Positions 13,177 through 28,393 of a DNA stretch of 32,000 nucleotides are shown one piece after another. The DNA comes from Geotalea uraniireducens Rf4 (GTDB lineage: Bacteria > Desulfobacterota > Desulfuromonadia > Geobacterales > Geobacteraceae). The position numbers were made by a program, and so were the translations under genes. The stretch covers positions 1,770,001-1,802,000 of the forward strand of contig NC_009483.1 of NCBI RefSeq assembly GCF_000016745.1, read 5' to 3'. The notes beneath the pieces were generated by a model, which searched no databases, was not told the origin of the DNA, and worked only from the letters and a program-made list of their open reading frames with translations. Every line of letters begins with the position of its first letter. The first letter of the stretch is position 1.

Positions 13177-13289
13177 CAGGAACAGGATGGAAGAACAAAC
13201 CACAGGATGGAAGAGATGAAGGCCGGACTATCTCAGCAACTCGCAACCGTCACGGCTGCGAAGGCGTCCTGCGGGAAGCAGGGGAAACG

Positions 13290-13341
13290 GCCGAATACAG
13301 GAGAGGGCGAATACCATTCGTCGTAACCGTGAGGCTGACAG
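13290..13341 (+). repeat. Direct repeat copy 2 (orphan remnant of a gene 3' end)
   Basis: Matches 6236-6287 (15 + 32 identical nt separated by 5 divergent nt). In the same frame it would read ..GRIQERANTIRRNREADRRM-stop. Weaker similarity with indels extends ~30 nt upstream. Confidence 0.85.
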
Positions 13342-13350
13342 AAGAATGTG

Positions 13351-13398
13351 AAAGGTCAGACCTACGCAATTGGCAATTGCGCAGGTCTAAACCTTTTT
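13351..13398 (+). terminator. Rho-independent terminator-like palindrome
   Basis: aaaggt-c-agacctacgcaattg-g-caattgcgcaggtct-aa-accttt followed by a T-run (13394-13398). The 15-bp arms carry one mismatch, plus an outer 6-bp helix. Confidence 0.55.
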
Positions 13399-13435
13399 CA
13401 TGTGCTCTAAATTCTCCAATTCGCCATCATACTTT

Positions 13436-13627
13436 TCACAGATGAAAGATGAAACTTATTCCCTTTTCAGATACATCCTTACAATTTCGACATATCACAT
13501 ATGAGGGTTCTTTTTGAGAGATTTGCCACCACCATGATCCTATGAAAACCATTATGCCAAGACCCAAAAAACGAGGCCATTCAGCAACTACCTCAGAAAA
13601 CTTCTTAGGTGTCGCTCCTTGGGCCAT
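13436..13627 (-). CDS. Possible small membrane protein (63 aa)
   Basis: Internal ATG of the 13436-13708 ORF with one hydrophobic segment (WPRFLGLGIMVFIGSWWW). No convincing RBS, so this could be noise at the island edge. Confidence 0.25.
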   Translation of the reverse strand: MAQGATPKKFSEVVAEWPRFLGLGIMVFIGSWWWQISQKEPSYVICRNCKDVSEKGISFIFHL

Positions 13628-13653
13628 TTTGTTAAATTTGCCATTGGCTACCC

Positions 13654-14622
13654 CTATTGCCCATCGAGAAATTTGATTACAGCTTGTTGAATGTACCGGT
13701 AATTCCATTCGATGAAAGGAATGTGGCCCACTTTGTTCGCATAAACGAAGCTGATGTCCTTGCTGCCGATTTTAGTGACTAATTCGAGGACATCGGCCTT
13801 TGATGAGGCGATATCTCCCGGACCATTCATAATAAGCACTCTCTTGTCAAATTTTTCCAGATCTTCAATGACCGGCAGACGGTATGATTCGAGGAAGAAT
13901 CCAACGGAGAACGAGCGGGTTTCATTGTAATAGTTTTGGACCCACTCCATGACTTCTGGTTCCGATGAAATGAATAAGGGGTACAGTTGTGGGACGAAAT
14001 TCATGTAGCCGTTTGGAGCATCGAGAAACATCTGTTCCGGCAGGATTTGCGCCGCCACATCGCCAATCTTGAAGTAGAAACCGCTCAGAAGGATGACATT
14101 CCCCACCAGTTCAGGAGCTTCCATTGACGCCTTCACCGATTGCCAGGCGCCGGTCCCATCTCCCAGCAAATCGACCTTGCCGATCCCTTTCTCAGCCTGC
14201 AGGTGCCGTATGACGGCAATGAGTTGTTTTGCCGATGTTTCCGTGGATATCGTTCTGCCGTCCGTCGGCCGGGTGCTTGCCCCGAATCCCAGGTTGTCGA
14301 CGGCATAAACATCATAGCCGTGCTCCGCAAGGAAGTTCATGAGTGAATAACCCTTGACTGGCACATCGTATATCATGTGATCCGTCCCTCCCCCATGAAG
14401 GAGGATAATGGCCTTTGAAACCTGTTGCCCAATAAGCCTGCGCGCCACTTTTTCCTTAACATGCAGGGTAACTCCTGCATCGGCAGGAATGTAATGGCTG
14501 AACTCTTGTATTTGCTTGAATTCATAGCTCTTTTCGTCAAAATGGGCGGCCTTTGCATCATAATTGATGACAAATACCGCAAGGAACATCATGAAAAACC
14601 AAGTTGCAAAGATCTTACGCAT
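13654..14622 (-). CDS. Exported alpha/beta-hydrolase-fold protein lacking the canonical nucleophile serine
   Basis: 322 aa, GGAGGG RBS, signal peptide (..VINYDAKAA). Has the HGGG oxyanion motif, DNLGFGAS, a nucleophile-elbow position reading LLGDGTGAW (Gly where Ser is expected), and later GPGD and GH motifs. Confidence 0.7.
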   Translation of the reverse strand: MRKIFATWFFMMFLAVFVINYDAKAAHFDEKSYEFKQIQEFSHYIPADAGVTLHVKEKVARRLIGQQVSKAIILLHGGGTDHMIYDVPVKGYSLMNFLAEHGYDVYAVDNLGFGASTRPTDGRTISTETSAKQLIAVIRHLQAEKGIGKVDLLGDGTGAWQSVKASMEAPELVGNVILLSGFYFKIGDVAAQILPEQMFLDAPNGYMNFVPQLYPLFISSEPEVMEWVQNYYNETRSFSVGFFLESYRLPVIEDLEKFDKRVLIMNGPGDIASSKADVLELVTKIGSKDISFVYANKVGHIPFIEWNYRYIQQAVIKFLDGQ

Positions 14623-14646
14623 AATTAAATCCCTCCTCGAAATATT

Positions 14647-15615
14647 TTACAGACAGATATTGTTTTCAGAATACCAGTGCCATGCCTGATCAACCCCTTC
14701 GAAAACTGTCGTCTTAGGTTGCCAACCGAGATCGTTGTCGCAGCTGTGCGCGAAATTGATGGAAAGGATATCGACTGCCCGCTTTGTCAGAGCGGGCGGC
14801 TTCTCCCTGCCGAGCAAGGAATAAATTCCTTCTGAAATCATGGCCAACGGGAAAACCAGCCATTTCGGGAATTTGAGCCAGGGGATAGGCGAACCTGTCT
14901 TTTCGGCAATGAGCCTGATGAAATCGTGAATGCCCATTTCAAGTCTCCCTACTCCCACATATTTGCCGCCGATGGCTTTCTCGTTTTCCGCTGCAAGCAA
15001 GAAAAGCTCGCAAAGATCGTCGATAAAGATCAGCGGTGCCCGTCGCTCGCCCCCTGAAACCAGGAATACTTTGCCTTTTTTCAGGCTTTGGGCGATAAAT
15101 GGAATGAATTTACTGTCATAAGGTCCGAAGATGAGGCCGGGATAGATGATGATAGCCTTTAACCCTTTCTTCTTCTGGAACCACGTCACCTTCTTCTCTG
15201 CATAATATTTGCTTATGGCATAATTGGTGCTCAAAAATTTCAGGTATCTCCTTAGGCGCAAAACGGAAATGGTGGAACAATGAATGAGGCGGCAACCGGG
15301 ATTATGGAGCAAGAGCGCATTGCAGAGATTTTCTGTCCCGGTTACATTGATCGCCTGATATTGTTCCTTTGAGGCATGACTGACCATGGCGGCCAGATGA
15401 ATGCAGACATCCAGATCCTTTACAAATTCATGAAGAGACTCTGCATTGAGCAGATCTCCTCGTACGATTTCGATGTCTGAGCCGGCAGCGTTGGTATTGC
15501 GAACTAAACATCTGACCATGTGTCCTTTTGCCGCCGCCAATTCTGTCAGCCTCTGGCCGAGAGCCCCAGTGCAACCTGTTATGCCGATTCGAAGCTGTGT
15601 CTTCATGATGTCCAT
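14647..15615 (-). CDS. NAD-dependent epimerase/dehydratase family (extended SDR)
   Basis: 322 aa. N-terminal GITGCTGALG (GxxGxxG) and the catalytic YxxxK (YAISKYYAEK). The alternative ATG at 15606 forms an ATGA overlap with the upstream stop. Confidence 0.8.
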   Translation of the reverse strand: MDIMKTQLRIGITGCTGALGQRLTELAAAKGHMVRCLVRNTNAAGSDIEIVRGDLLNAESLHEFVKDLDVCIHLAAMVSHASKEQYQAINVTGTENLCNALLLHNPGCRLIHCSTISVLRLRRYLKFLSTNYAISKYYAEKKVTWFQKKKGLKAIIIYPGLIFGPYDSKFIPFIAQSLKKGKVFLVSGGERRAPLIFIDDLCELFLLAAENEKAIGGKYVGVGRLEMGIHDFIRLIAEKTGSPIPWLKFPKWLVFPLAMISEGIYSLLGREKPPALTKRAVDILSINFAHSCDNDLGWQPKTTVFEGVDQAWHWYSENNICL

Positions 15616-16664
15616 GTAATCCCCATGTTCTTTTTATGGGTGAATAGATAATTGATATAGTTCCTGGTGTATACCAGAGCTCTGTAACATTTTAAAAACA
15701 TTAGTCTTATCAGGGTACTGTCTTTTATGACGACAAGCAATGCGGGTATGTAGCCACGTTCAATATAGGCAATGATTGGATTCTCGGCTTTGTTCGGGAT
15801 CGGAGACTTTACCAGCAGAATCTTTTCACAGCGGTGTTGTTTCTCGTAGGCTATAAATTCTTTGAGACTGGAAACCATCACTACTTGCAAATTTTTTTTT
15901 TCAATGGTCTCGATTAAGGAAACTAATGATTTATTTACTGAACCAGATGTTGCAATAAGTAATGCATCTGTTATCCCTTCAAGCAATTCTTCGCTCAAGC
16001 TTTCGATCTCAACGATAGGACTGGCTTTACTACTGATCCACATGCAACTGGTTATGTATTTCATACTCTGTCGTTCCGGAAAAGAATGGCATATGAAATC
16101 ATAAATTTCGTTGATATGAGAGGGCAAAAAAGTAACGTAAGGAAGAAGTGCCAGCTGTTTCCCATTCTGTTCCCGAATAATCTTTTCCTTGTAATTAGCC
16201 ATCTGCACGAGAATCAGATCTTTCGGAAAAATAGAGTTGTAGTTCTTTATAATAATATGATTTGGTTCACAGAGCAGGACGTATTGGAAAGTTCCGTCGG
16301 ATTTCTCGAGAATAGTTCTGATTTTTCGAATAAAGGAACATGGGAGGTCCACTATCTCGACGCCCCGTGCCTTTAAAATTTTTTCCTCATTGACGATCGA
16401 GTCGTAACCGGTGTTGACGACTATGAAATTATTGTCATTCGGAAGGTCGCGGTAGCTACCGACTACATCGAGACCGAGAGTCTTCAGCCATTTCAGATCA
16501 ACTCCTACTCTGCCATTGTCATTACTGATCCACTCAACGATGAGATACATCTTCTTGGCGCCGGGGCGCAAAGAGTGCTCTATCATTTTGGGGAAAATAC
16601 CGTGCATTACCTTATTTTCAAGCCATTTGCATCTCCCGTCGTTTTTCAGGGTTACAACTTCCAT
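15603..16664 (-). CDS. Divergent IspH/LytB-like Fe-S protein (fold assignment by eye)
   Basis: 353 aa. Colinear by-eye matches to E. coli IspH blocks recalled from memory: GRCKWL~GFCAGV, VDLPCSFIRKI~FDATCPLVTKV, LLCEPNHII~LIGHAGHPEV, LLPYVTFL~FMTQTTLS, ITSCMWIS~DICYATTN, LLIATSGSVNKS~VLVVGSKNSSNS. The ORF itself is solid; the family call needs an HMM or structure search. Confidence 0.55.
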   Translation of the reverse strand: MEVVTLKNDGRCKWLENKVMHGIFPKMIEHSLRPGAKKMYLIVEWISNDNGRVGVDLKWLKTLGLDVVGSYRDLPNDNNFIVVNTGYDSIVNEEKILKARGVEIVDLPCSFIRKIRTILEKSDGTFQYVLLCEPNHIIIKNYNSIFPKDLILVQMANYKEKIIREQNGKQLALLPYVTFLPSHINEIYDFICHSFPERQSMKYITSCMWISSKASPIVEIESLSEELLEGITDALLIATSGSVNKSLVSLIETIEKKNLQVVMVSSLKEFIAYEKQHRCEKILLVKSPIPNKAENPIIAYIERGYIPALLVVIKDSTLIRLMFLKCYRALVYTRNYINYLFTHKKNMGITWTS

Positions 16665-16667
16665 GAA

Positions 16668-17339
16668 CTATATCCCCGCTCTTGCCGGAGCCCGCAATTG
16701 CAGAATATCGATATTGGTCGGGATCGTAGCCGACCTGGAGATATCAAACATCTTGCCCCTGCTTATTTTCCGCAACTTTTGATAAAGATCGCGTTTCATA
16801 GTTGTCAATGCTGCATCAGCGAACGCGCACAGCTTGCCCTGTTGCACATAGAAAAATTGACAATCACGTTTCTTGAGTATGTCTCCGTTCATCTCGACGT
16901 TCTGGTCAACACAAATAATTGCCAAAGGAGCATCAAGCTCGCCGAAGGTAAGGTAGTCAAAATGTATTTTATTAGCAATAACGATATATCCTTCAAGTGG
17001 TACATTATAATGAGTATGGCACGAAGCGATTCCAAACTGGCGGATCAACTCGAACTGCTTCATAAGAGGATAGTGGTCTAAAGGGTGATCGAAACATACC
17101 TGACATTCAAGATTCGGCTTGGCTTGGCAGTAATAGATTGAATGTATCAGATTGTTTTCGCAGTACCGGCGAACAGCTGAATCATCTACTTGGTTAATTT
17201 CGCTTATTACCACCTGAGTCGGATCTAATTTGTGCACATACTTTTTCGGAATATGATTCTCGCTGAGTCCCTGTTTCCCAACGATATGATCGTAAAGGTC
17301 TTTAATTTCTCTGCTTGACAGTAGCATGACTTCCTCCAT
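16668..17339 (-). CDS. Hypothetical Cys/His-rich protein
   Basis: 223 aa, tightly packed in the operon with a 3-nt gap to the next gene. Motifs: C..(11)..C..(7)..CQVCFDHPLDH and SCHTHYN. I recognise no family securely. Confidence 0.65.
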   Translation of the reverse strand: MEEVMLLSSREIKDLYDHIVGKQGLSENHIPKKYVHKLDPTQVVISEINQVDDSAVRRYCENNLIHSIYYCQAKPNLECQVCFDHPLDHYPLMKQFELIRQFGIASCHTHYNVPLEGYIVIANKIHFDYLTFGELDAPLAIICVDQNVEMNGDILKKRDCQFFYVQQGKLCAFADAALTTMKRDLYQKLRKISRGKMFDISRSATIPTNIDILQLRAPARAGI

Positions 17340-17348
17340 TTTTTGAGC

Positions 17349-18137
17349 TTATCTGCTCATGAAGAGTTTCGTAGCAATGGTCATTAAACGTCGCGGCGTG
17401 AATTTAATAGAATAAACGGTCATTTTGTTGGCGAAGCCAGGAACGATGCTTCTTTTCCCCTGATTTAGCGCATCGTATCCAGCGCGTGCCACCGTGCGCG
17501 CATCCATGACCCCCCATTTATATTTAAAGAGGGTAATGTCTTCGATATTTGCGCGTTTCGCAAATTCCGTGGCGGTCGCGCCCGGACAGAGTGTAGTGAC
17601 GGTAATATTAGTTCCTTTCAATTCTTCAGCGATTGCTTCGGAGAAACTGAGTATGTATGCTTTAGTGGCACAGTAAACGGCGTTGAATGGTCCACCAGGG
17701 ACAAATGAGCCGGTGGAGCCGACATTGAGTATCCTTCCGCTCCCCTTGGCAAGCATGTCGACGAGGAACAGTTTCGTCAGAATCGTCAAGCCGGTAATGT
17801 GGACATGGAGCATATCCAACTCTTTGTCCAGGGGGGTCTCCGAAAATGTGCCATAGACCTGGAAACCTGCATTGTTGACAAGAATATCCACGGAAATTCC
17901 CTGTTGTTTCACAAAGTTGTGGATTTTCCGAGGACTATTCCCATTCGCTAAATCTGTGACAAGAATATGCGACTGTGTCCCATACATGTTTTTTAGTTCC
18001 TGACCAAGGGCTTGCAGACGTACTTCGTCTCGCGAGACGAGCACAAGATCATAGCCATCCTTTGCAAAGAGCTTGCTCAGTTCATAACCGATGCCCGCTG
18101 TAGGACCAGTAATCAGCGCTATTTTTTTCACGGCCAT
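17349..18137 (-). CDS. Classical short-chain dehydrogenase/reductase (SDR)
   Basis: 262 aa, GGAGGA RBS. TGPTAGIG (TGxxxGxG), NNAG, and the catalytic S..YCATK (YxxxK). Confidence 0.85.
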   Translation of the reverse strand: MAVKKIALITGPTAGIGYELSKLFAKDGYDLVLVSRDEVRLQALGQELKNMYGTQSHILVTDLANGNSPRKIHNFVKQQGISVDILVNNAGFQVYGTFSETPLDKELDMLHVHITGLTILTKLFLVDMLAKGSGRILNVGSTGSFVPGGPFNAVYCATKAYILSFSEAIAEELKGTNITVTTLCPGATATEFAKRANIEDITLFKYKWGVMDARTVARAGYDALNQGKRSIVPGFANKMTVYSIKFTPRRLMTIATKLFMSR

Positions 18138-18145
18138 TCCTCCAT

Positions 18146-18562
18146 TTAAATGCTGAATTCTATACTATTTCGCATCTTGATATAGTTAATCACTGACACA
18201 ACAATTCCTACAGCTCCTGTTGCAAGAAGAATGTAAGACTTGGTAAGTGGTATCCAAGCATCCAACATTGACAATGTACTGGCCGATCCCCAGAACGTTA
18301 TGACCAGGATTGTAAATAACATCCACCATAGTATCTGAAACTTAAGAAGTATAAAGGTTATGTTTGTATTAGACTCTATTAGTTCGTATCCAAAGAAAAT
18401 GAAAACAAACGCAATCAACATATTTTCTATCAGCAAAAACTCCTTATAGATCCATGTGGTTTTTAATAGTGGTATTTCGAAGGCAATGTGCATTACTCCA
18501 GAAATGATATTTACAACTGCCAGCAACCAAATGGACATACTCTTTTTCTGATAGTTGCTCAT
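18146..18562 (-). CDS. Small integral membrane protein (about 4 TM)
   Basis: 138 aa, GAGGAG RBS, four long hydrophobic segments. 8-9 nt gaps to both neighbours. Confidence 0.7.
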   Translation of the reverse strand: MSNYQKKSMSIWLLAVVNIISGVMHIAFEIPLLKTTWIYKEFLLIENMLIAFVFIFFGYELIESNTNITFILLKFQILWWMLFTILVITFWGSASTLSMLDAWIPLTKSYILLATGAVGIVVSVINYIKMRNSIEFSI

Positions 18563-18571
18563 AATTTCTCC

Positions 18572-19744
18572 TCAACAAGCTTTTGACATATTAATTCTAC
18601 GATTCCTGAATGAGCGAGCCTGCTCCATAAAAGACTCAAGTCTTGTTTTGATATTTGTTTGCTGCAGACCATCATCAATGAAAGTCATCATGGGAATATC
18701 TCCATTGTCTCGACGGATCTTTGTATAACAAGCGGTAGATATCTTCCCCAAGACACAGTTGAAGCCATGCGCATTCACGAGCCCATCGACATTCCGCTCC
18801 TCCACAAAATCGACGCATTTCCCGATGAACATGGACGGGATAACGGGAGCAACATCCGGATTGACATATTTGGATGCATTTACCGTCAACCACTCGTTAT
18901 CCTGGTCGGGAAACATTTCTGAATATTCTCCGGCGATTTGCTCGATGCGTTTTTTATAAAAATCGAGTGTGAAACTGCCACCGAACGTCATCGCCGCTTT
19001 TGGATAGTTCCCTTTTTCCCAGAGTGCTTTCACCAGCCTCACAGATCCGTAGCTAACGAAGTCGTGCCATGATGGCGGGAGGATTACCACCCCTCCCATA
19101 CGTTCTATCCCCTTAAAAATTTCGTTCATGCCGTATTTGTGGACGCGTGTGAATGCGTCACCGACGATCCCAATTTTTACCAGATCCCGTTCTTCCAACT
19201 CCACGCATTTCAACAAATCCATTGCAGCTTTGAAGTATTTGATGATCCGGTTTTCGCGTATTCCTTTCGCCAACTTCTGTTCCGCTTCGTGGTACGCCGC
19301 ATCAGCAGTGCCGCGGACTTTTTCATAGGGTCGAATCTGATAGCGGTATCTCGACAGATAATCATGGCAAATAAGGCCGATCCACAAATCGAGGGAGAGC
19401 TTCAGGCCAAAATTCTTTATCCAGTCAAGCGGATTATCCACCGTTGGGCCAAACAGCCAGATATCCCCTCCTACCGTCTCCTTCAGCACCTTTTCGTGCA
19501 GGTCTTTGAACAGGGCCAGACGACAGGCTTCGTTGTAACCGAAGGAAAAGAAAGCCGCCTTGTTAGGATCGAACCCTTCCATTTGTGTAGTGGCCAGGTA
19601 GTCACCGAGTACCACCTGGTAAGTCCGGCAATGTTTTTCGTTCGAGTGTTTGCGCCCGAGCATGTTTGAATGGGAGGATGTCTCACGCACAAGCTCACAC
19701 TTCACGTTGTGGGCGCGAAGAATTTCGATCAAGGACGTAAATGC
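18572..19744 (-). pseudogene. C-terminal 387 codons of the activase/dehydratase-like fusion gene, separated by the ISL3 insertion
   Basis: After removing 19745-21094 the reading frame continues exactly: ..VSEAFT|SLIEILRAHNVKCELV... The MIRCRAAFT start in the track is an artefact of IS-end sequence. Confidence 0.85.
19737..19744. repeat. Target-site duplication GTAAATGC (left) of the ISL3 element
   Basis: Identical 8-mer at 21087-21094, directly abutting the terminal inverted repeats. Confidence 0.9.
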
Positions 19745-21086
19745 GGCTCTGCAACGAATCAAGTGGGTAGAGGGAATAGCGACTTTAGGTTGAGCTTGCC
19801 TGCAACCAGATAAGCCATGCAGATCAAGTTGTCAGGATTCCGATAGCCTCGTGCCCGAGTTTTGGCTGATTGAATTAGGCTGTTGATGCCCTCAATGAAG
19901 CCGCTAGTCAGGCCGCTTTCAAAATGTGCCAGAATGCCATCCCAATGCTCTTTTACAGATTCGGCCATGTTCTTGATGAGTTGGATTGAGCTTGCGGCGG
20001 CTTTCCGATGCCATTTGGTCAACAGGGTTTCTGCCTCCGTTCGGCTTGAAGCAAAATAGACGTTCTGAAGGTTCAGCTTGTGCATGTAAGCTTCCGTACT
20101 CCTTAAGCTTTGACTGGTGATAATGGCATCCAGGCGCTGTTCCTCTTCCGGTGTCAGGTTCTCTGGATTTTTGAGGAACAGGTTTCTGCTCTTTTTCAGG
20201 ATTTCAGGAAATAACCTGGCTTCTTGAGCCCTTATCTTACTAAGCTTATCGTTCATAAGCTTGATGACGTGGAATTTATCGAAGGTGACCACGGCATGGG
20301 GCAACTGCTCTTTGACACCCTTTATGAATGCCTTGGACATGTCAATAGCAGCGTCTGTGATGCTATCAGGATCGCCGCCATGTGACTTAAGGTCCGCGAC
20401 GAAGCTCTTGACTGTTTCGTTGTCCTTTCCCGTCGTGCCGAACAAGAGCTTATGCATGTCGAGGTCGAAGAAGAAGGTGACGAATTTCTCGTCATGACTG
20501 CGCCCGGCAAAGGTTTCATCCGCACCGACCCTCTTCACCTCGGAGAAGTCTTCTGCGGCCCTTGCCTTCTCGACATAGGATTGAATCAACCGCCATAGAC
20601 GGGTATCGGTAACGGCAAACAGCCTGCTCATGACCTTCACCGGCAAATCACGAGCCATGGTCATGGCCAGGGCCTCAAACAGCAGCGTAAATCCTGAGCC
20701 TGCGCGAGCCCAGGGTACCTGGACCAACTTCACGCCGCAGTCGCTGTTAGGGCACTTTACCCGTGGAACACGCGCATGAAGGTAGGCTTCGTACTGGAAG
20801 AAATTCAGATGCCGCCACTCTTTCTCCGTGGTGTCATGGACTGGTGACAACGTTCCGCAGACCGGACAGGGAAAGGTGGCTCCCCGCTGGAAGTCGATGG
20901 TTATGTCCAAACGACTTGACTTCTTGTTGAAGTCAACAGAGGTAACCTTCCACGGGATGGCAATTCCAAGAGCAGCACCAAAAAGATCTTCAGGATTCAT
21001 AGCGATTACTAACCTCCAGGCTGAGTGATGGTGGCCTATCTTACATCAACCCGGCCCAGGCTACCCACTCAATTCGTCGAGGAGCC
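19745..21086 (-). mobile_element. ISL3-family insertion sequence (1342 bp)
   Basis: 26-bp terminal inverted repeats starting GGCTC.. (19745-19770 vs rc of 21061-21086, 21/26 identical). Single transposase ORF and a perfect 8-bp TSD. Confidence 0.9.
19759..21000 (-). CDS. ISL3-family transposase
   Basis: 413 aa. N-terminal zinc-finger region (CPVCG..H..; VKCPNSDCG) followed by a DDE domain, typical of ISL3 transposases (..GADETF.., ..AIDMSKAF.., ..NSLIQSAKTRARGYRN). Confidence 0.9.
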   Translation of the reverse strand: MNPEDLFGAALGIAIPWKVTSVDFNKKSSRLDITIDFQRGATFPCPVCGTLSPVHDTTEKEWRHLNFFQYEAYLHARVPRVKCPNSDCGVKLVQVPWARAGSGFTLLFEALAMTMARDLPVKVMSRLFAVTDTRLWRLIQSYVEKARAAEDFSEVKRVGADETFAGRSHDEKFVTFFFDLDMHKLLFGTTGKDNETVKSFVADLKSHGGDPDSITDAAIDMSKAFIKGVKEQLPHAVVTFDKFHVIKLMNDKLSKIRAQEARLFPEILKKSRNLFLKNPENLTPEEEQRLDAIITSQSLRSTEAYMHKLNLQNVYFASSRTEAETLLTKWHRKAAASSIQLIKNMAESVKEHWDGILAHFESGLTSGFIEGINSLIQSAKTRARGYRNPDNLICMAYLVAGKLNLKSLFPLPT

Positions 21087-21094
21087 GTAAATGC
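21087..21094. repeat. Target-site duplication GTAAATGC (right) of the ISL3 element
   Basis: Identical to 19737-19744. Confidence 0.9.
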
Positions 21095-24000
21095 TTCGCT
21101 TACGGGGGGGACATACAAAGTACGGCCATCGTTGACAATGTCTTTGAGTGTTACGGATCTGCGCTTGAATTTCTCGTAATTCTCAGCGTAATTATGATTC
21201 TTCCTATCAGCAGTAGCACTTTCCCAGAACGCTTCACATCGGGTAAGCACACCGGTCACGGAATTATGCTCATCGAGCTCGATTTCAAGCCAGGGTTCGC
21301 TGCCGAAAATGTCAGCAAGGTATGGAACAAGCATGGAATCCGCCGCGCAACCGAACGTCGTCAGCAACACTGGCAGCAATTTATTGACATGTTTGGTATT
21401 GTACTCGTGGATGTATTCCGCAACGTTGATCGTTTTATTGTTAGTTTTCCAGACCAGATCAATCTTTTGCGAATGAGTAATCGTCATGTCTAACGGAAGT
21501 AAATCGGCAGGTATCGTGGGGATACCCAACTTTATGAGGTGTCTGGCAAGATTGAGGTTGAAAAACTTGTCATGTGTAATATACGGGTGCCCCATAACAA
21601 CGAAAACTCTTTCAAAGGAGTCGAAATTTTTCAGCGCCTCCTTTCCTTTTTCCTTGCAGATGCGGACAAATTCCTGCTGGGCCGTCAACGCTTTCCTGCT
21701 TGCCTTGATACTTTCTTTGACCGGAATTCCCAACTGTTTACCGATTTCCACGAAAGCTTTTTCAATGTTGCGATCGTCTTTCAGCTTGAAGGTTGCGGTA
21801 ATTAAGGCGATATCGAGAGAGGAAGATTTCACGAAATCGGGAATCTGCTGGATATATTGGCAGTTATGAGCAAAATTCGTATCATAGGATTCGTCATACA
21901 TATTGAGGACATATGGCAGGAAAATTTTTGTAACACCTTTGCCACGAAGATTTTCAACAGCTCCGTACATCGATTTGATGGGAAAACATGTATCTGTCAA
22001 TATGTAGGAAATTCCTTTTTCATAAATTTGCTTGTTATAATTATCGGACAGTTCAACTGAATATCCTATCTCCTTGAAAAAAGTCGCCCACAGAGGAAAA
22101 AGCTCATAAAACTGCAACATTCTTGGAATTCCAATAATTCGTTCATTTCCCTTTTGACCCTGATAGGAAAGTAGGAGCTTTTCCCGCCAGGTGAAATAGT
22201 CGGGTATAAAATGACGTGACTCCTCCTGCTGTTCAAATTTCCCGCAGTTGCTGCCGTAAACTGCTTCCTGATCATCATCGAACTTTACACTCACAAGTTT
22301 GCAAACATTTGCGCATTCGCTGCAGTTGATGATTTTTTCCTCGGCGATCCGGTTATCGATATTGAATCCATGGAAGCGGGAAGGCCCATTGTGTTTCTTC
22401 ATCTCTTTCTGCGCAAGGAAAGCCATCCCGAGCGCGCCGGTAACCTCGTGATGCGGGGCAACGATGACGTCTTTGTTGAGAAGCTGGGTAAAGGCCCCTA
22501 CAACGCTGGCATTGAAAGCGACCCCACCCTGAAAAACAATTCTCTCGCCAATGGGATGATTTCCGCAGACTTTTTCGAGATAATTCTTCGCGATCGAATA
22601 ACTCAGACCAGCCAATATGTCTTCCTTCGGCACGTTGTTTTGCTGGTAATGGATACAATCCGTTTCCATGAAAACGGTACAACGAGTACCCATATCGACC
22701 GGGTTTTTCGAGGTCATTGCTAAACGGGAAAATTCCTCATTCAACGCCGTACCAAGTCTATTCGCCTGTTCCGCAAGAAAAGAGCCGGTCCCGGCGGCAC
22801 AGGTTTTATTCATGATAAAATCAGCGATGCTGCCGTTCTTCACACGGATATATTTAGCGTCTTGTCCGCCGATTTCGAAAATCGTATCCACATCCGGAAC
22901 AAGCATGACCGCTGCCGTAGTCTGTGCGGTTATCTCATTTTTGACGAGATCGGCGCCGACAATATTCGCGATGTATTTTCGACCGGAACCGGTAACCCCA
23001 ACGCCTTTGACGGAAAAATCACCGGGCCCCAAAACGTTGAGGATTTCAGCGAAAGACTTTTTCAGGGCTTCGACAGGCTCCCCGTTAATGGCGGTATATA
23101 CCGTATACTTAATTTCCTTCGCATCGTTAATGAGCACCACCTTGACACTTACTGATCCGACATCGATACCCACATAAAAATCGCGATTATTCTCAATTTT
23201 ATTCAGCTGATATGATGGACGAAGCACCCTCGCAGTTGTCAGTGGCGGTAACCCAGACATTTTGTGATTGCTCAACTGGGCAATAGTTACTCTCTCCAAC
23301 AGGAATGAATGGCTCCGTTTCTGCGTTCTGCCGGAACGGATGGCATAAAGCGCGGCTCCTATCGCTCCCATAGTGTCGAAATACTCAGGAATAATCATAT
23401 CTTCGATATTTACTTTGAGTAATTTTGTGAATGCTTTTCTCATTCCGGCATTCCGCGCCACACCCCCCTGAAATATGATTGGTTTTTTTATCTGCCTTCC
23501 TTTTACGAGATTTTCGATAAACGTTCTGACGGCGGCTTCACAAAGTCCAGAACACAAATCTTCTTTTGCAACGCCGGTCTGTTGAAAATGAATCATGTCT
23601 GTTTTAGCAAAGACGCTGCACCTCCCTGCTATCTTGGCAGGATTTACAGAGTTATACGCAAGCTCTGACAGCTCCTCGACTGTAATCCCCATGCGAAATG
23701 CCTGTTGATCGAGAAAAGATCCGGTTCCTGCCGCGCATATATCATTCATCGAGCTGTCTATTATGGCGGTTTCCCCGCTACTAGCTTTTTCGAGAAGGAT
23801 CAGTTTGGAATCCTGCCCGCCTATTTCTATAACGCTCTTCGCTTCAGGATGATAATAGGCAGCAGCAATTCCATGGCTTGTAATCTCATTTACCGACTCA
23901 CAATCGATCAACTTCGCGATCGATTCTCGCGCGCTCCCGGTGGTTGTAATGCTCTCGAATTCGATGGAATCCATGTCTTCAAATAATGAAGAGATGGCCT

Positions 24001-24151
24001 CAGCAAAAGCTTTTAGCGGCTCACCATGAGTACGGCGATAATCCTTCCAGATAACATTGCCGGTTTCGTCAATAACAGCAAGTTTTACACTGACAGAACC
24101 GCAATCAATTCCGAGATAATGTTTTGCTTCTTTTTGTTTTGAATTCGACAT
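21087..24151 (-). pseudogene. N-terminal part of a fusion of two BcrAD/BadFG-type ATPase (activase) modules with a DUF2229/dehydratase-like region, interrupted by ISL3
   Basis: Two actin-fold ATPase modules: GIDCGSVSVK..EIGGQDSK..CAAGTGSFLDQQA..RCSVFAKTD, and GIDVGSVSVK..EIGGQDAK..CAAGTGSFLAEQA..RCTVFMETD. Then a Cys cluster (CSECANVCK..NCG) and the IGIPRMLQFYELFPLWATFF block typical of DUF2229. Likely ATG at 24151 (AAGGA RBS); the track uses TTG at 24166. The last 14 codons of the track ORF are IS-derived. Confidence 0.85.
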
Positions 24152-24162
24152 TGTATCATCCT

Positions 24163-24324
24163 TCAAATATGGTCAATTCGCATTTCTATTGCTATGTCGT
24201 CTATATACGATATAAAGACTGATGTTTTGTTATATTTGTTTGTAGTGCTTGTGAATGTGTTTGTTAGAATGCTCTCAACGAAAAATTCATCATTTATTTT
24301 AAGATTGGCTTCGGATGCCCCCTG
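24163..24324 (-). pseudogene. Probable C-terminal part of the first operon gene (split by IS3)
   Basis: The frame QGASEANLKINDEFF..MRIDHI-stop ends 9 nt before the ATG of the big fusion gene. It is in frame with 25978-26316 across the IS3 boundaries, with the same AT-rich, Asn/Lys/Ile-rich composition. Confidence 0.5.
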
Positions 24325-24392
24325 TGTCAGGATAGTTGTCGCCTCTCTTCCGAACTTTTGTGTTAACCTGCGGGGCAACAGAGAGAGGGACC

Positions 24393-24917
24393 ATGGCCAC
24401 CAAATATTCCGAAGAATTCAAGTCGAGCATTATTGCCAGGCTTCTGCCTCCGCATAATGTCAGCGTTCCTGACATGGTAAAAGAGACCGGGGTTCCTAAA
24501 GACACCCTGTACACTTGGAGGAATCAATACCGCAACAGGCAGGTTAATGCCGAGGCGAGCGGAAATCATCCGGCAGCCAGCCTAAACAACGAAGAGAAGT
24601 TGGCCATCGTCATCGAATCCGCCAGTCTCACTGAAGTTGAACTGGGTGAATATTGCCGACGCAAGGGACTCTACCCTGAGCAGATCGCCGGTTGGAAGAA
24701 CGGCTTCGTACTCGGATCATCTGCCCCCCTCAACAAGGCCGAACGCGAGCAAATGAGGGAACAGACAGCGACCATTAAGCAGCTTGAGAAAGAGCTGAAC
24801 CGCAAGGATAAAGCATTGGCCGAGACTGCAGCCCTGCTGATTCTTCAAAAAAAGTTCCAGGCGCTCTGGGAGGAGCCCGAGGCAGAAAAATCGACCTCCC
24901 GGCGCGCCAAGAACTGA
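24393..24917 (+). CDS. IS3-family transposase OrfA (HTH)
   Basis: MATKYSEEFK.. start with a GAGAGGGA RBS. HTH region and a leucine-zipper-like C-terminus. Contains the frameshift site. Confidence 0.85.
   Translation: MATKYSEEFKSSIIARLLPPHNVSVPDMVKETGVPKDTLYTWRNQYRNRQVNAEASGNHPAASLNNEEKLAIVIESASLTEVELGEYCRRKGLYPEQIAGWKNGFVLGSSAPLNKAEREQMREQTATIKQLEKELNRKDKALAETAALLILQKKFQALWEEPEAEKSTSRRAKN
24848..24854 (+). other. Programmed -1 ribosomal frameshift heptamer A_AAA_AAG
   Basis: In the orfA frame the codons are caA AAA AAG. A -1 shift reads ..KKVPGALGGARGRKIDLPARQELIALIDEACAGGARLGRACEAVLLSPRTVQRWHLPDE.., joining the orfB frame without a stop. Confidence 0.75.
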
Positions 24918-24997
24918 TTGCCCTGATAGACGAAGCCTGTGCCGGTGGTGCACGTCTGGGTAGGGCCTGCGAGGCTGTTCTTCTTTCGCCCCGCACC

Positions 24998-25954
24998 GTG
25001 CAACGTTGGCATCTTCCTGACGAAATACCCTCAGATGGGCGCAAGGCCGCGTCTCGCGATCGGGCACCGGCCAATAAGCTTTCTGAAACGGAGCGGGTCA
25101 CAATCCTGGCGACTGCCAACCAGGAGAAATTCGCCAGCCTGCCGCCCAGCCAGATAGTTCCTAAATTGGCCGACGACGGGATCTTCCTCGCTTCTGAGTC
25201 AACCTTCTACCGAACCTTACGGGCAGAGAAGCAGCTGGCACACCGGGGCCGTACCAAGGCTGCAAGACACAAGCGCCCAGATGCCGTGCTGGCCACCGAG
25301 CCGAACCAACTCTGGAGCTGGGATATTACATACTTGAGCACTACCGTTAAGGGGCTGTACTTTTACCTCTACCTGATCATGGATGTCTTTAGCCGCAAGA
25401 TCGTCGGTTGGGAAGTCTATGCGGAGGAATCCGCCGATCATGCCGCCATAACGTTGCGCAAGGCCTATCTGCGTGAAGGCGTCGCCGGTCGCACCCTGAT
25501 ACTTCACTCCGACAACGGCTCGCCCATGAAAGGCGCTACCATGTTGGGAACTATGCAGAAGCTTGGGGTAATGCCGTCCTTCAGTCGGCCCTCTGTCAGC
25601 AATGACAACCCATACTCAGAGTCACTGTTCAAAACCTTGAAGTATCACCCCGGCCTACCGGAGAAACCTTTCGATACGTTGGACGAGGCACGGCACTGGG
25701 TTGCCGGTTTCCAGCATTGGTACAACGAGGAACATCAGCACAGTGCCATAAAATTCGTAACGCCGGGTCAGCGCCACCGGGGCGATGACAAAGAGATACT
25801 CAACAAACGAGCGCTACTTTACGCGATGGCGAGGGCCGCAATGCCGGAACGATGGTCGGGTGCTTGCCGGAACTGGACTCGACCAGCAGAAGTTTCCTTG
25901 AACCCCCAAAAATCGGCTCAGAACGGTACGCCGTCTCAAGCCAGAGCAGCATAG
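24998..25954 (+). CDS. IS3-family transposase OrfB (DDE integrase core), expressed as an OrfAB fusion
   Basis: DDE triad context: WSWDITYL, LHSDNGSPM, NPYSESLFKTLK. The frame is open back to the slippery site at 24848. Confidence 0.85.
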   Translation: MQRWHLPDEIPSDGRKAASRDRAPANKLSETERVTILATANQEKFASLPPSQIVPKLADDGIFLASESTFYRTLRAEKQLAHRGRTKAARHKRPDAVLATEPNQLWSWDITYLSTTVKGLYFYLYLIMDVFSRKIVGWEVYAEESADHAAITLRKAYLREGVAGRTLILHSDNGSPMKGATMLGTMQKLGVMPSFSRPSVSNDNPYSESLFKTLKYHPGLPEKPFDTLDEARHWVAGFQHWYNEEHQHSAIKFVTPGQRHRGDDKEILNKRALLYAMARAAMPERWSGACRNWTRPAEVSLNPQKSAQNGTPSQARAA

Positions 25955-25977
25955 AAGATGCGACAACTTCCTTGACA

Positions 25978-26316
25978 ACGACCGGATGGCGTAATTTCTA
26001 TTTTTGAAATTTCAGCATTTATTTTGTAGGAAGGTTTGAGGTCGTACATAAAGCTCATATATGCTTTATTCAATTGTGTGCTTATTACCAAGGCATGCAT
26101 TATATCCAACATAGGCTTCCGTTCATTTTTGTCGTATAGTATCTTGGCCTTTCCTTCTATATTTTTTGTAAAAATATTTATTTTGATTTTGTATATATTG
26201 TAATCAAAGTCGTATAATTTCTTTGAAATGTCAGGGAAGTATATGCCATTGATCATGCCGTTTATGGTTTTGAATGTCAGGTCGCAGACGTTGCTTATAC
26301 AGTTATAGCTCGGCAT
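25978..26316 (-). pseudogene. Probable N-terminal part of the first operon gene (hypothetical protein), truncated by IS3
   Basis: ATG at 26316 (MPSYNCISNV..) with an AAAGGTG upstream; the track uses TTG at 26334. Native sequence ends ..KIEITPSGR at 25978, and the remaining 13 codons of the track ORF are IS3 sequence. Confidence 0.5.
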
Positions 26317-26400
26317 TTTTGTCGCACCTTTCAAGCAATATTATAATAAAAAGTTAATTGATTTTTTCTGCAATACATATAAACTGAATAAAAATAAAAA

Positions 26401-26424
26401 ACACCTATACCAAAGTATAGGTGT
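26401..26424. promoter_or_regulatory. Perfect 10-4-10 palindrome in the divergent region between the operon and the kinase gene
   Basis: ACACCTATAC-caaa-GTATAGGTGT, flanked by an A-rich run upstream and TTTT downstream. It is either an operator for a dimeric HTH regulator or a bidirectional intrinsic terminator. Confidence 0.5.
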
Positions 26425-26445
26425 TTTGCTAATTAGGTGGAATTA

Positions 26446-27678
26446 ATGTTTGGTTGTTACAAGATGAACTTCTTTACTCTGAAATTTAAATCACCGGAAA
26501 TTGAGTCGATATTTCTCGATTATTACTATAACCAGTCAATACGGCACATCAGGGTCGCCCTTTTCTTCGGATTATTCCTCTATGTCGCCTTCGGTTTTCT
26601 TGATCCTTATGTAATACCAGAGGCAACATCAGAATCATGGTTTATCAGATATGTTATTTTTACCCCTTATATTACACTTGTAATCATATCTTCATTCTTT
26701 AAGTATTTCAAAAATCTCATGCAATCATTCTTGTTCACAGTTATTTTGCTCGGAGGCATGGGAATAATAGTCATTACAATTCATTCTAATCCAAAAACTA
26801 ATTATTTATACTATGCCGGTCTCATTATTGTAATAATGTTTTCATATACATTTCTAAAGCTGAGATTTATTTATGCATCCATTGCAACGTGGACTCTAGT
26901 CATTCTATACGAAATTATCTCTTTTGAAGTCGTAAAAATGCCTACAGCCTTCTTTATTAACAATACATTTTTCTTGATTTCTGCCAATTTGATCGGTATG
27001 TCCGCATGTTATCAAATGGAGGTTTCCTTTAGAAATAATTTCATTCAACAACTAACAATAAAAGAATTGGGAGAGAAAAGGCGGCAGGAAGAAAAAGAAA
27101 TGATAATGAAAGACCTGCATGATGGTATAGGTGGAATCATGACCAACATCAGCCTGTTAACAGAAATATCTCAAAGAAAGCCTGATTTAGTCGGAGATAG
27201 ATCCGATGTCTTAACTACAATAGCTGAGCTTTCCAGAGAAGCTATATCCGAACTACGAATGGTTATTAACAATCTTGACTCTAAAGACAGGGACTGGCAT
27301 GATTTCGCGGCTGATTTGAAAAATTTCGGGGGTATTATTCTATCATCGCATGGCATCTCCTTTTCCATCCATACGTCAGTAACAGGCCCATCGGAAGCTC
27401 CCAATACTGTGATTTATCTCAATTTACTTAGAATCTACAAGGAGGCGCTGACGAATGTTATCAAACACTCTTTTGCGCATAATGTCATCATTGACTTTGA
27501 CAAAAAAATTACGGACATAGTCTTGAAAATTCATGATGACGGAATGGGTATTCCTGCAGAAGGGCCAAAAGGAAGAGGCATTTTGAATATGCGGAAAAGA
27601 GCACAGGAAATCGGAGCTCAGATTGACATCAACGGAGCGAAGGGGACGACAATTATCGTAGCAGTACCACTCACTTAA
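26446..27678 (+). CDS. Membrane sensor histidine kinase, HisKA_3 (NarX/DesK-like) class
   Basis: About 6 N-terminal TM segments, a coiled linker, H-box MKDLHDGIGG, N-box EALTNVIKHS, G1 DDGMGI, G2 GRGILNMRKRA. The start is ambiguous (GTG 26437, ATG 26446 or ATG 26464). Confidence 0.8.
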   Translation: MFGCYKMNFFTLKFKSPEIESIFLDYYYNQSIRHIRVALFFGLFLYVAFGFLDPYVIPEATSESWFIRYVIFTPYITLVIISSFFKYFKNLMQSFLFTVILLGGMGIIVITIHSNPKTNYLYYAGLIIVIMFSYTFLKLRFIYASIATWTLVILYEIISFEVVKMPTAFFINNTFFLISANLIGMSACYQMEVSFRNNFIQQLTIKELGEKRRQEEKEMIMKDLHDGIGGIMTNISLLTEISQRKPDLVGDRSDVLTTIAELSREAISELRMVINNLDSKDRDWHDFAADLKNFGGIILSSHGISFSIHTSVTGPSEAPNTVIYLNLLRIYKEALTNVIKHSFAHNVIIDFDKKITDIVLKIHDDGMGIPAEGPKGRGILNMRKRAQEIGAQIDINGAKGTTIIVAVPLT

Positions 27679-27693
27679 TCATGGATGGTTCAT

Positions 27694-28393
27694 ATGAAAA
27701 TAGCAATAATAGAAGATGATCCACTTCTCAGCAAAAACCTCAAGCTTCTCTTAGAGAATGAACCAGGCTTCACCGTCCTCGCGACTTTTCCATCAGCCGA
27801 TGGAATACTTCCTAAGGTCAAAAGACTCATACCGGAGATCATGTTGGTTGACCTCGGCCTGCCAGGAATTTCCGGGATAGAGTTCATTACTCAGGCAAAA
27901 AAAGAAATGCCTCAAATAGATATAATTGCCCATACGATTTTTGATGATAAAGAAACAGTTTTCACGGCCATAAAAGCTGGGGCTACTGGATATATTTTGA
28001 AAGGATGCAGACCTCAAGAACTCATCGATGCATTCAATGAAGTGTACCATGGGGGATCTCCAATAACCCCGAAGATTGCACGTAAAGTAATACTTGAATT
28101 CCAAAATTTTGAAATGAATGAAAAGAAGAATCTGAGCATCGTGGAAGAAGACATTCTCAAAGATATTTGTCATGGAATGACTTCAACTGAAATTGCAGAC
28201 AAACTGTCAGTTCATTCATCAGAAGTTAAAAATCAAATTAAACAGATTTACAAGAAAGTACAAGCTCAAACAACAACCGACAAGGCAACTAAGTCTATAA
28301 ACGACTTGATAATATTAAGTTCAAGAGAAAAAGAAATTTTAAACTGGATAAAGCATGGCAAAAGTACTTGGGATATTTCTCAAATATTACAAA
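27694..28393 (+). pseudogene. NarL/LuxR-type response regulator, N-terminal part, interrupted by IS4
   Basis: REC domain (IAIIEDD.., ..MLVDLGLPGISG.., ..KAGATGYILK), then a first LuxR/GerE-type HTH (LSIVEEDILKDICHGMTSTEIADKLSVHSSEVKNQIKQIYKKV) and the start of a second (LSSREKEILNWIKHGKSTWDISQILQ|). The last 5 codons of the track ORF come from the IS end. Confidence 0.85.
28387..28393. repeat. Target-site duplication TTACAAA (left) of the IS4-family element
   Basis: Same 7-mer at 29950-29956, abutting the 13-bp terminal inverted repeats. Confidence 0.8.

Follow-up and report, generated by a model that had tools for sequence, protein, structure and literature searches.

The bacterium Geotalea uraniireducens Rf4 carries, at positions 13654-26316 of the stretch analysed here (32,000 nts of contig NC_009483.1, hereafter the window, whose numbering is used throughout), an island of co-directional genes that was first singled out from its sequence as a candidate reductive pathway. 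The island is probably a horizontally acquired biosynthetic cluster for an exported, lipophilic small molecule derived from AfsA activity, of the gamma-butyrolactone (GBL) or butenolide kind, which was inactivated in Rf4 by three insertion sequences (IS). Its near-invariant unit consists of an AfsA-family protein, an IspH-like protein and an extended short-chain dehydrogenase/reductase (SDR), while an add-on module comprises a large fusion of two BcrAD/BadFG ATPase modules with DUF2229, a four-transmembrane (4-TM) protein and a classical SDR. AfsA clusters themselves are known; what is new here is an AfsA-type cluster with an undescribed IspH-like family and a distinct PlsA/Ger-like reductase subfamily. 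Targeted full-text searches of the literature yielded nothing that connects AfsA with a paralogue of IspH/LytB or with a PlsA-like protein, a search on IspH-like or LytB-like paralogues returned only true IspH isozymes, and one on butyrolactone, Geobacter and antiSMASH returned nothing relevant. The idea of an undescribed reductive pathway, proposed by the sequence-only reading, thus survives, but its centre, now AfsA, and its likely product class had to be revised.

The AfsA, IspH-like and extended SDR genes as a conserved unit

In total, 23 distinct loci were compared by an iterative search of all locus open reading frames (ORFs) and by tblastn. They originate from Geotalea, Desulfobacterales and Syntrophobacteraceae, two Nitrospirota, Clostridia/Lachnospiraceae including abundant gut species, Dysgonomonas and Tannerellaceae, and Cellvibrionaceae, Arenicella, Thiodiazotropha and other Gammaproteobacteria, and so cover Desulfobacterota, Nitrospirota, Bacillota, Bacteroidota and Gammaproteobacteria. 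The AfsA gene lies beside the IspH-like gene in every locus in which the upstream DNA is covered, and the extended SDR accompanies the latter in 22 of the 23 loci, the exception being L031, which has classical SDRs instead. Some loci, such as L030, contain only these three genes of the cluster. In addition, a protein of the representative library (P0254, 634 aa) is a natural fusion of an epimerase-family SDR with the IspH-like protein.

The add-on module of fusion, 4-TM protein and classical SDR occurs in seven loci, all from anaerobe lineages, and the fusion is absent from the other 16, including all those of Gammaproteobacteria and Bacteroidota. The classical SDR co-occurs with the fusion in L010, L011, L024, L026 and L031, and also in L014, whose contig ends within the fusion. 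The neighbourhood search suggested along with the earlier reading thus returned an IS-free colinear copy of the island (L001) and a fusion co-conserved with the IspH-like gene in at least six further loci, from Nitrospirota, Bacillota and Desulfobacterota. However, the pairing of fusion and IspH-like protein, which had been taken as the core, gives way to the three-gene unit.

The AfsA gene had been passed over as a Cys/His-rich protein of 223 aa. Its product belongs to the AfsA hotdog family (PF03756), whose enzymes are the hallmark of GBL synthesis, and this domain was also detected on the neighbour gene in L001, L003, L006, L007, L028, L030 and L031. In tblastn, it shows 23-27% identity to Streptomyces ScbA/BarX genes, and a search of the PDB with the single sequence gave nothing significant. 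The AfsA versions of the sister loci measure 260-304 aa.

The genes around the unit in sister loci comprise KASIII, ACP, KS, KR, malonyl-CoA:ACP transacylase (MCAT) and acetyl-CoA carboxylase (ACC), and these genes of the fatty-acid-synthesis (FAS) type could supply a beta-ketoacyl thioester. Exporters are present as a tripartite RND pump or as MMPL with a LolA-like protein, and regulators are of the TetR, Agr or two-component type, suggesting that the cell secretes the product, a lipophilic compound that would be a signal or an antibiotic. The earlier reading proposed that the island remodels a membrane-associated, lipid or isoprenoid-like substrate, but AfsA, FAS-type genes, exporters and regulators together resemble a secondary-metabolite or signal cluster.

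Two sister loci illustrate these neighbourhoods. The locus of Dysgonomonas capnocytophagoides (L003, 1-20960) contains TetR, AfsA, IspH-like and SDR genes, a tripartite RND pump, a radical SAM protein and KASIII, and is flanked by RteC, DUF1896, a topoisomerase and a large methylase-helicase, all typical of conjugative transposons, which suggests that the cluster is mobile. In human-gut Lachnospiraceae (L028/L029, 1-20915), the triad is part of a larger locus with ACP, an Agr-type quorum-sensing set (AgrB, a kinase and a LytTR regulator), MCAT, ACC, KASIII, S-adenosylmethionine synthetase and a radical SAM protein. The IspH-like protein of Lachnospiraceae was found in 122 blocks of the assembly collection and is therefore common in gut metagenomes.

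An IspH fold outside the canonical IspH family

The IspH-like protein only just exceeds the cut-off of the Pfam LYTB family (Table 1) and does not reach that of the equivalog TIGR00216 (23.2 bits for a cut-off of 187.85). A word-index search returned homologues in 114 clusters at the 90% identity level, with 44-98% identity and from many phyla. When the family profile was run against 1.84 billion representatives, 35 proteins were retrieved at E<=1e-10, and a clear gap separates the family's own members (at least 87 bits) from canonical IspH (at most 47 bits). The LytB-like proteins described here are thus a small, undescribed family separate from canonical IspH. Among more distant IspH-like proteins (125-185 bits; representatives P0263 and P0270), two carry a C-terminal SnoaL_2 (polyketide-cyclase-like) domain.

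A search of the PDB with the single sequence gave nothing significant, and only the family profile reached the IspH of Aquifex. In contrast, the AlphaFold model (pLDDT 90, pTM 0.81) retrieved IspH structures from the PDB at Foldseek ranks 1 to 12 (E 3.8e-12 to 2.8e-8; TM-score 0.51-0.69; 12-16% identity), the next match being at E 0.02. The original IspH-like call is thereby upheld: the protein has a genuine IspH fold and probably binds a [4Fe-4S] cluster.

Five residues (C12, C109, C132, C207 and H136) are invariant in a 19-sequence alignment of the family. In profile alignments, with the numbering of E. coli IspH, C12, C109 and C207 correspond to C12, C96 and C197 of IspH and H136 to H124, while Glu126, His41 and His74 of IspH are replaced by Ile138, Ser47 and Gly86. 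In addition, C109 aligns with a Cys of the Aquifex enzyme. We conclude that the protein is not a reductase of (E)-4-hydroxy-3-methylbut-2-enyl diphosphate (HMBPP), and an isoprenoid substrate is unlikely because the diphosphate-binding and proton-relay residues of IspH are missing.

At its C-terminus, the IspH-like protein has a long helix of hydrophobic or amphipathic character (residues ~305-347, encoded within 15603-15750), which is present in the versions of Desulfobacterota, Nitrospirota and Gammaproteobacteria, is absent from the ~304-320-aa versions of Bacillota and Bacteroidota, and may be a membrane anchor.

A PlsA/Ger-type fusion as an add-on

The fusion likely starts with the ATG at 24151 and counts 1409 to 1414 aa, an identical protein of 1409 aa (P0115) being intact in environmental contigs. 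PF01869 (BcrAD_BadFG; 277 bits) matches two stretches and is followed by PF09989 (DUF2229; 187-190 bits), and this BBD order is that of PlsA and Ger, as had been suspected. PF06050 (HGD-D) was not found on P0115 at E<=5; precomputed Pfam data list it for some members of the subfamily (P0123, P0125 and P0136). Compared with the PDB, the ATPase modules match the activators of 2-hydroxyisocaproyl-CoA and 2-hydroxyglutaryl-CoA dehydratases and MbdQ/MbdP of 3-methylbenzoyl-CoA reductase (4eht, 1hux and 9gai; E 9e-35 to 4e-21). Two Cys pairs of the ATPase modules (C139/C178 and C451/C491), a CxxCxxxC...C motif and six more Cys in the C-terminal half are invariant across the fusion subfamily and an outgroup.

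Within the subfamily (P0116-P0136), identity is 48-60% and then steps down to at most 40% for proteins that are mostly annotated as Dehalococcoidia 'CoA activases'. Its members share a contig with IspH-like genes wherever the context is visible, and AfsA, IspH-like, SDR and 4-TM genes stand alongside in every such context. The nearest homologue outside the subfamily (40% identity; L032, 1103-9983) adjoins a 138-aa protein, two KASIII, a KS and an ACP. This 10-kb contig contains no AfsA or IspH-like gene, and its 138-aa protein has no detectable homology to the 4-TM protein.

The 4-TM protein of the island matches no Pfam or NCBIfam entry. Its family has conserved membrane-embedded His, Glu and Asn residues, with the motifs MH[IV]xFE in the first transmembrane segment and F[IL]L[IV]EN in the second, and homologues are found in L003 (19290-19658), L007 (9641-10393), L010 (17203-17634), L011, L024, L026 and L031 (6199-6723). 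The protein is also present in clusters without the fusion and is duplicated in tandem in the version from Desulfobacterales.

Inactivation of the cluster in Rf4

The cluster is inactivated in Rf4 because it contains three IS, and the island of this strain is a decayed, non-functional version. An ISL3-family element, which has 27-nt inverted repeats and has generated a perfect target duplication of 8 bp (GTAAATGC; 19737-19744 and 21087-21094), splits the fusion gene. Its excision in silico joins 21095-24166 to 18572-19744 in one uninterrupted frame of 1414 codons, in agreement with the length first estimated. The first gene of the operon is interrupted by an IS3-family element, for which the boundaries drawn from the inverted repeats alone (24325-25977) were superseded after comparison with the IS-free locus (Table 1). 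Exact excision gives a protein of 160 aa instead of the ~166 aa announced earlier. The third element, ISGur1 (terminal inverted repeats CTCAACT/AGTTGAG), removes 31 codons from a response regulator, which measures 241 aa in Rf4 and 272 aa in L001.

All three IS are absent from L001, a groundwater-metagenome contig that is colinear with the island and 97.7-99.1% identical across it. Over 15 kb, three separate genes of Rf4 thus carry insertions from three different IS families, and all three are free of insertions in the environmental relative. A stretch of ~151 nts (13403-13553), located between the gene of the copper ATPase (ABQ25730, 10783-13176, assigned by exact match) and the end of the cluster and present once in the window, has no equivalent in L001, which is colinear otherwise.

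Proposed chemistry and alternative explanations

Gene content, folds, conserved residues, co-conservation and IS disruptions were observed; from them we infer the substrates, the order of the reactions, and what the product is and does. AfsA would esterify a beta-ketoacyl thioester onto dihydroxyacetone phosphate (DHAP), and cyclisation of this ester can give a butenolide phosphate, as happens in the synthesis of A-factor. The butenolide phosphate has allylic C-O bonds like those of HMBPP, and we therefore propose an allylic deoxygenation in which the IspH-fold [4Fe-4S] protein would remove a hydroxyl or phosphate by a two-electron reduction. This would parallel the conversion of HMBPP into isopentenyl and dimethylallyl diphosphates (IPP/DMAPP), but with a diphosphate-free substrate. 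The extended SDR would then reduce the resulting C=C or C=O bond. Where the add-on is present, the classical SDR could reduce the side-chain ketone or the one derived from DHAP, the fusion could use ATP-driven low-potential electrons to reduce the carbonyl of the AfsA-made ester or lactone to an ether or enol ether, by analogy with PlsA and Ger, and the 4-TM partner would act at the membrane. The kinase and LuxR-type regulator encoded next to the operon would probably control production or sense the product.

Several observations weigh against this assignment to a GBL- or butenolide-like pathway. The AfsA protein of the window scores 48.7 bits with the NCBIfam model of ScbA/BarX (NF041195), for a cut-off of 200, and it is short, with a single Pfam stretch (residues 35-176), compared with the tandem hotdog repeats of the ~300-aa ScbA/BarX; it may transfer another acyl group or act on another acceptor. 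In the IspH-like family, C132 is a fourth invariant Cys, and Glu126 has no equivalent. The Fe-S cluster might therefore be fully ligated, with C132 closing its open site, and serve in electron transfer instead of IspH-type inner-sphere chemistry. Finally, the MMPL and LolA-like exporters and the HpnA/OleD-like SDR would fit a structural lipid of the outer membrane equally well.

The last point leads to the most serious alternative, in which the fusion is central and the cluster remodels a structural membrane lipid (ether, plasmalogen-like or isoprenoid-like), so that its product is a constituent of the membrane or outer membrane. This would account for the BBD architecture shared with Ger and PlsA, for the MMPL and DUF1329/LolA-like genes of sister loci, typical of outer-membrane lipid export, for the sub-threshold best matches of the extended SDR (HpnA and OleD) and the classical SDR (mycolate reductase), and for the 4-TM partner and the long hydrophobic C-terminal helix of the IspH-like protein. 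Moreover, a conversion of an acyl-DHAP ester into an ether followed by reduction of the ketone would mimic the eukaryotic acyl-DHAP route to ether lipids. However, AfsA and the IspH-like protein are constant while the fusion is missing from 16 of the 23 loci, and Ger alone is sufficient to form ether lipids in E. coli (PMC13159169), implying that no such partners are needed. The rarity and patchy distribution of the cluster, its AT-rich composition, its presence on mobile elements and its dispensability, illustrated by the three IS of Rf4, are unlike a core membrane-lipid pathway, and the absence of the residues with which IspH binds diphosphate makes an isoprenoid substrate unlikely. Overall, we consider a membrane-lipid function unlikely.

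Two further explanations are far less probable. The fusion could be a catabolic enzyme of the 2-hydroxyacyl-CoA dehydratase or benzoyl-CoA reductase type, acting in the anaerobic degradation of an aromatic or hydroxy-acid substrate with the SDRs and the hydrolase downstream. Relatives of Geobacter degrade aromatic compounds, and the ATPase modules do match dehydratase activators and subunits of 3-methylbenzoyl-CoA reductase, in NCBIfam as well as in the PDB. Yet no locus contains a CoA ligase or transferase, separate BcrBC/HgdAB subunits or beta-oxidation genes, and the constant partners are a biosynthetic acyltransferase (AfsA), FAS-type genes and exporters, which makes a catabolic role very improbable. 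It is just as hard to believe that the LytB-like gene encodes a second HMBPP reductase, after the model of LytB1 and LytB2 in mycobacteria, in an incidental neighbourhood. The LYTB score (27.1 bits for a cut-off of 24.5), the IspH fold and the three conserved cluster Cys would be expected of such an isozyme. On the other hand, the equivalog score (23 versus 188 bits), the 12% identity to IspH structures, the replacement of Glu126, His41 and His74 by Ile, Ser and Gly and the profile that separates the two groups all speak against it, and throughout the loci the gene stands beside AfsA and never beside genes of the methylerythritol phosphate (MEP) pathway.

If an AfsA-derived exported molecule is retained as the probable product, a broader proposal can be made, although we advance it tentatively and lean somewhat against it in its full form. 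The triad may define an unrecognised class of small molecules in at least five phyla, including abundant gut Lachnospiraceae, and provide the first known reductive deoxygenation of the IspH type on a non-isoprenoid substrate, namely an AfsA-made butenolide or acyl-DHAP. In anaerobes, the substrate of the PlsA/Ger-type reductase might be a small-molecule ester or lactone rather than a phospholipid of the membrane, and signals or antibiotics of the ether, enol-ether or furan type would result.

The proposal matters in three respects. IspH is treated as a single-function isoprenoid enzyme and drug target, and a paralogue family tied to AfsA would give its fold a second chemistry. For AfsA outside actinomycetes, the three-gene unit is a defined and clonable starting point, with aerobic Gammaproteobacteria among the hosts. 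Lastly, Ger/PlsA homologues now serve as genomic markers of bacterial ether lipids and in the interpretation of biomarkers. At the thresholds E<=1e-50 and 30% coverage, the fusion would probably be counted as a Ger homologue, and with a BBD subfamily located in a secondary-metabolite-like cluster, ether-lipid surveys would over-count producers.

Comparison with known systems

AfsA enzymes esterify beta-ketoacyl-ACP onto DHAP, and the ester cyclises to a butenolide phosphate, which in actinomycetes is reduced by BprA, the side-chain ketone being reduced by an SDR (PMC5735094). In actinobacterial GBL clusters, an NAD-epimerase/dehydratase (GblE/JadW2) is also essential, at a step that is unknown (PMC5735094). 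AfsA homologues occur in 12 phyla, in diverse unexplained neighbourhoods and with unknown products (PMC8209734), and the presence of KASIII or other ketosynthase genes beside them has been noted before (PMC5735094, PMC8209734).

The actinobacterial clusters for GBLs, butenolides and furans (AfsA-BprA of Streptomyces griseus, ScbA-ScbB-ScbC, GblA/C/D/E of Rhodococcus, MmfL and Spt9) likewise combine AfsA with an epimerase-family protein, a classical SDR and regulators. The epimerase-family (PF01370) and adh_short partners present in the window belong to the same families as GblE/JadW2 and ScbB/GblD, respectively, and a TetR regulator and an exporter are found in sister loci as in GBL clusters. 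Unlike the island, GBL clusters contain no IspH-like or PlsA-like protein. Their synthase gene stands beside a TetR receptor of the ArpA/ScbR type, whereas the window has a kinase and LuxR-type pair and TetR is found only in the Dysgonomonas locus. The hosts also differ, being here Desulfobacterota, Nitrospirota, Bacillota, Bacteroidota and Gammaproteobacteria.

Another non-actinobacterial and horizontally acquired AfsA cluster, SPOA0339-0344 on the megaplasmid of Ruegeria pomeroyi DSS-3, directs the production of a diffusible, density-dependent and self-induced antimicrobial (bioRxiv 10.1101/766410). Like the island, it has regulators and a transporter, but it has no PlsA-like gene. A tblastn search of the 72,556 plasmids of PLSDB with the IspH-like protein gave no match, hence the Ruegeria cluster appears to be of a different type.

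Compared with IspH/LytB of the MEP pathway, the IspH-like protein has the same three-domain fold (TM-score 0.6-0.68) and keeps the cluster Cys and the equivalents of His124 and Thr167/168. It differs in the low identity, the loss of Glu126, His41 and His74, the extra C132, the C-terminal hydrophobic helix of many members and a context of AfsA and SDR genes rather than isoprenoid genes.

In E. coli, Ger alone yields 1-alkyl-glycerol ethers, and the BBD architecture is conserved in all alkyl-ether producers, the C-terminal part with HGD-D and extra DUF2229 segments being variable (PMC13159169). The fusion shares with PlsA-PlsR of Clostridium perfringens and with Ger of Thermotoga maritima (Tmari_0479) and Desulfatibacillum alkenivorans (SHJ90043) a length of ~1400 aa, the BBD order, a Cys-rich C-terminal half and anaerobic host lineages. 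Among the homologues compared, it nevertheless falls into a subfamily of its own (identity of at least 48% inside and of at most 40% to the nearest others), and Ger acts alone, on bulk phospholipids. Similarly, the fusion modules match the activators of 2-hydroxyacyl-CoA dehydratases and the ATPases of class I benzoyl-CoA reductases and keep both [4Fe-4S]-bridging Cys pairs, but in the fusion a single polypeptide unites two such modules with acceptor domains of their own, and genes of CoA-ester metabolism are absent from its neighbourhood. Neither CoA-activation genes nor separate subunits of a dehydratase or reductase were found in the window, L001, L010, L011, L024, L026 or L031.

Organization of the island and other features

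The ORF list of the window gives eight co-directional, closely packed minus-strand genes across the island (Table 1). The gaps between them measure 24 nts, an ATGA overlap, 3, 9, 8, 9 and ~11 nts, where the overlap presumes that translation of the epimerase begins with the fourth codon, in line with the annotation of L001. The strand and tight spacing reported for a nine-gene operon are therefore right, and the count becomes eight genes plus two IS elements, with the third IS in the neighbouring response regulator gene. G+C content is 44.5-45.2% in the cluster, 33% in the first gene, 37% in the kinase/regulator pair and 54.5-54.7% in the flanks. The block is thus clearly AT-richer than its surroundings (45% versus 55% GC), for which 'far more' was a generous wording. 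Profile searches bear out the domain assignments made earlier (two BcrAD_BadFG, DUF2229, LYTB, adh_short, Epimerase and Abhydrolase). By exact match, the Rf4 accessions ABQ25735 and ABQ25737 are the two halves of the 'acyl-CoA dehydratase activase' and ABQ25731 is the alpha/beta hydrolase of the island.

Table 1. Features of the island and its borders in the window
Feature	Position	Strand	Basis
Exported alpha/beta-fold protein, 322 aa	13654-14622	-	Pfam Hydrolase_4/Abhydrolase_1/6; signal-peptide-like N-terminus
Extended SDR, NAD-dependent epimerase/dehydratase family, 319-322 aa, core gene	14647-15615	-	PF01370, 113 bits
IspH-fold Fe-S protein, 353 aa, core gene	15603-16664	-	PF02401 (LYTB), 27.1 bits, cut-off 24.5
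AfsA-family hotdog protein, 223 aa, core gene	16668-17339	-	PF03756, 50.6 bits, cut-off 24
Classical SDR, 262 aa, add-on module	17349-18137	-	adh_short, 149 bits
Four-TM protein, 138 aa, unannotated family	18146-18562	-	No Pfam/NCBIfam match
Fusion gene, 3' part, C-terminal ~390 aa	18572-19744	-	In-frame join after ISL3 removal; 98% identical to intact L001 gene
ISL3-family IS inside fusion gene	19745-21086	-	Transposase 19759-21000; Pfam DDE_Tnp_ISL3, HTH, Zn-ribbon
Fusion gene, 5' part: two BcrAD/BadFG ATPase modules, CxxCxxxC...C motif, DUF2229	21095-24166	-	Pfam
First gene, 3' part	24163-24317	-	Exact IS3 excision; matches 160-aa gene of L001
IS3-family IS inside first gene	24318-25982	+	orfA 24336-24917, orfB 24998-25954; inverted repeats; 6-bp duplication CGGATG on both sides
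First gene, 5' part, 33% GC	25989-26316	-	Exact IS3 excision; 160-aa hypothetical protein
Divergent membrane histidine kinase, HisKA_3 type	26437-27678	+	37% GC; NCBIfam UhpB/MctS/MadS-like matches, all below cut-off
NarL/LuxR-type response regulator, C-terminus truncated by ISGur1	27685-28393	+	NCBIfam response-regulator matches; L001 comparison
ISGur1 (IS4 family), third IS of the island	28394-29949	-	Source annotation names transposase ISGur1; 7-bp duplication TTACAAA
Minus-strand ORFs as called	13654-14622, 14647-15615, 15603-16664, 16668-17339, 17349-18137, 18146-18562, 18572-19762, 21041-24166, 25936-26334	-	ORF calling

The best NCBIfam matches of the extended SDR are HpnA and OleD (2-alkyl-3-oxoalkanoate reductase), far under their cut-offs, and that of the classical SDR, mycolate reductase, is also below its own. 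The exported alpha/beta-fold protein has, as read from its translation, a Gly at the nucleophile position (G-D-G-T-G), which agrees with its description as a Ser-less protein, and it retains candidate acid (GPGD) and His (VGH) positions of the triad. Its function may be to bind a ligand and not to hydrolyse it. No homologue of it was found in the other loci, so that it is confined to the Geotalea lineage. The same holds for the 160-aa protein of the first gene, which has no Pfam or NCBIfam match and for which the single-sequence AlphaFold model was unusable (pLDDT 32).

The histidine kinase divergent from the operon is probably the regulator of the island. It occupies an identical position in L001, where its orthologue gives weak Pfam matches to MASE8, HisKA_3 and HATPase_c. 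An Rfam scan of 13100-28500 gave no match, and a promoter and terminator scan returned fewer sites than shuffled controls, so that the ends of the operon are not defined by it. In the 120 nts that separate the start of the operon from the divergent histidine kinase gene, a perfect palindrome with a 13-bp stem (AAAACACCTATAC-TTTG-GTATAGGTGTTTT, 26398-26427) is flanked on both sides by T/A runs; it might serve as an operator or as a terminator for both directions.

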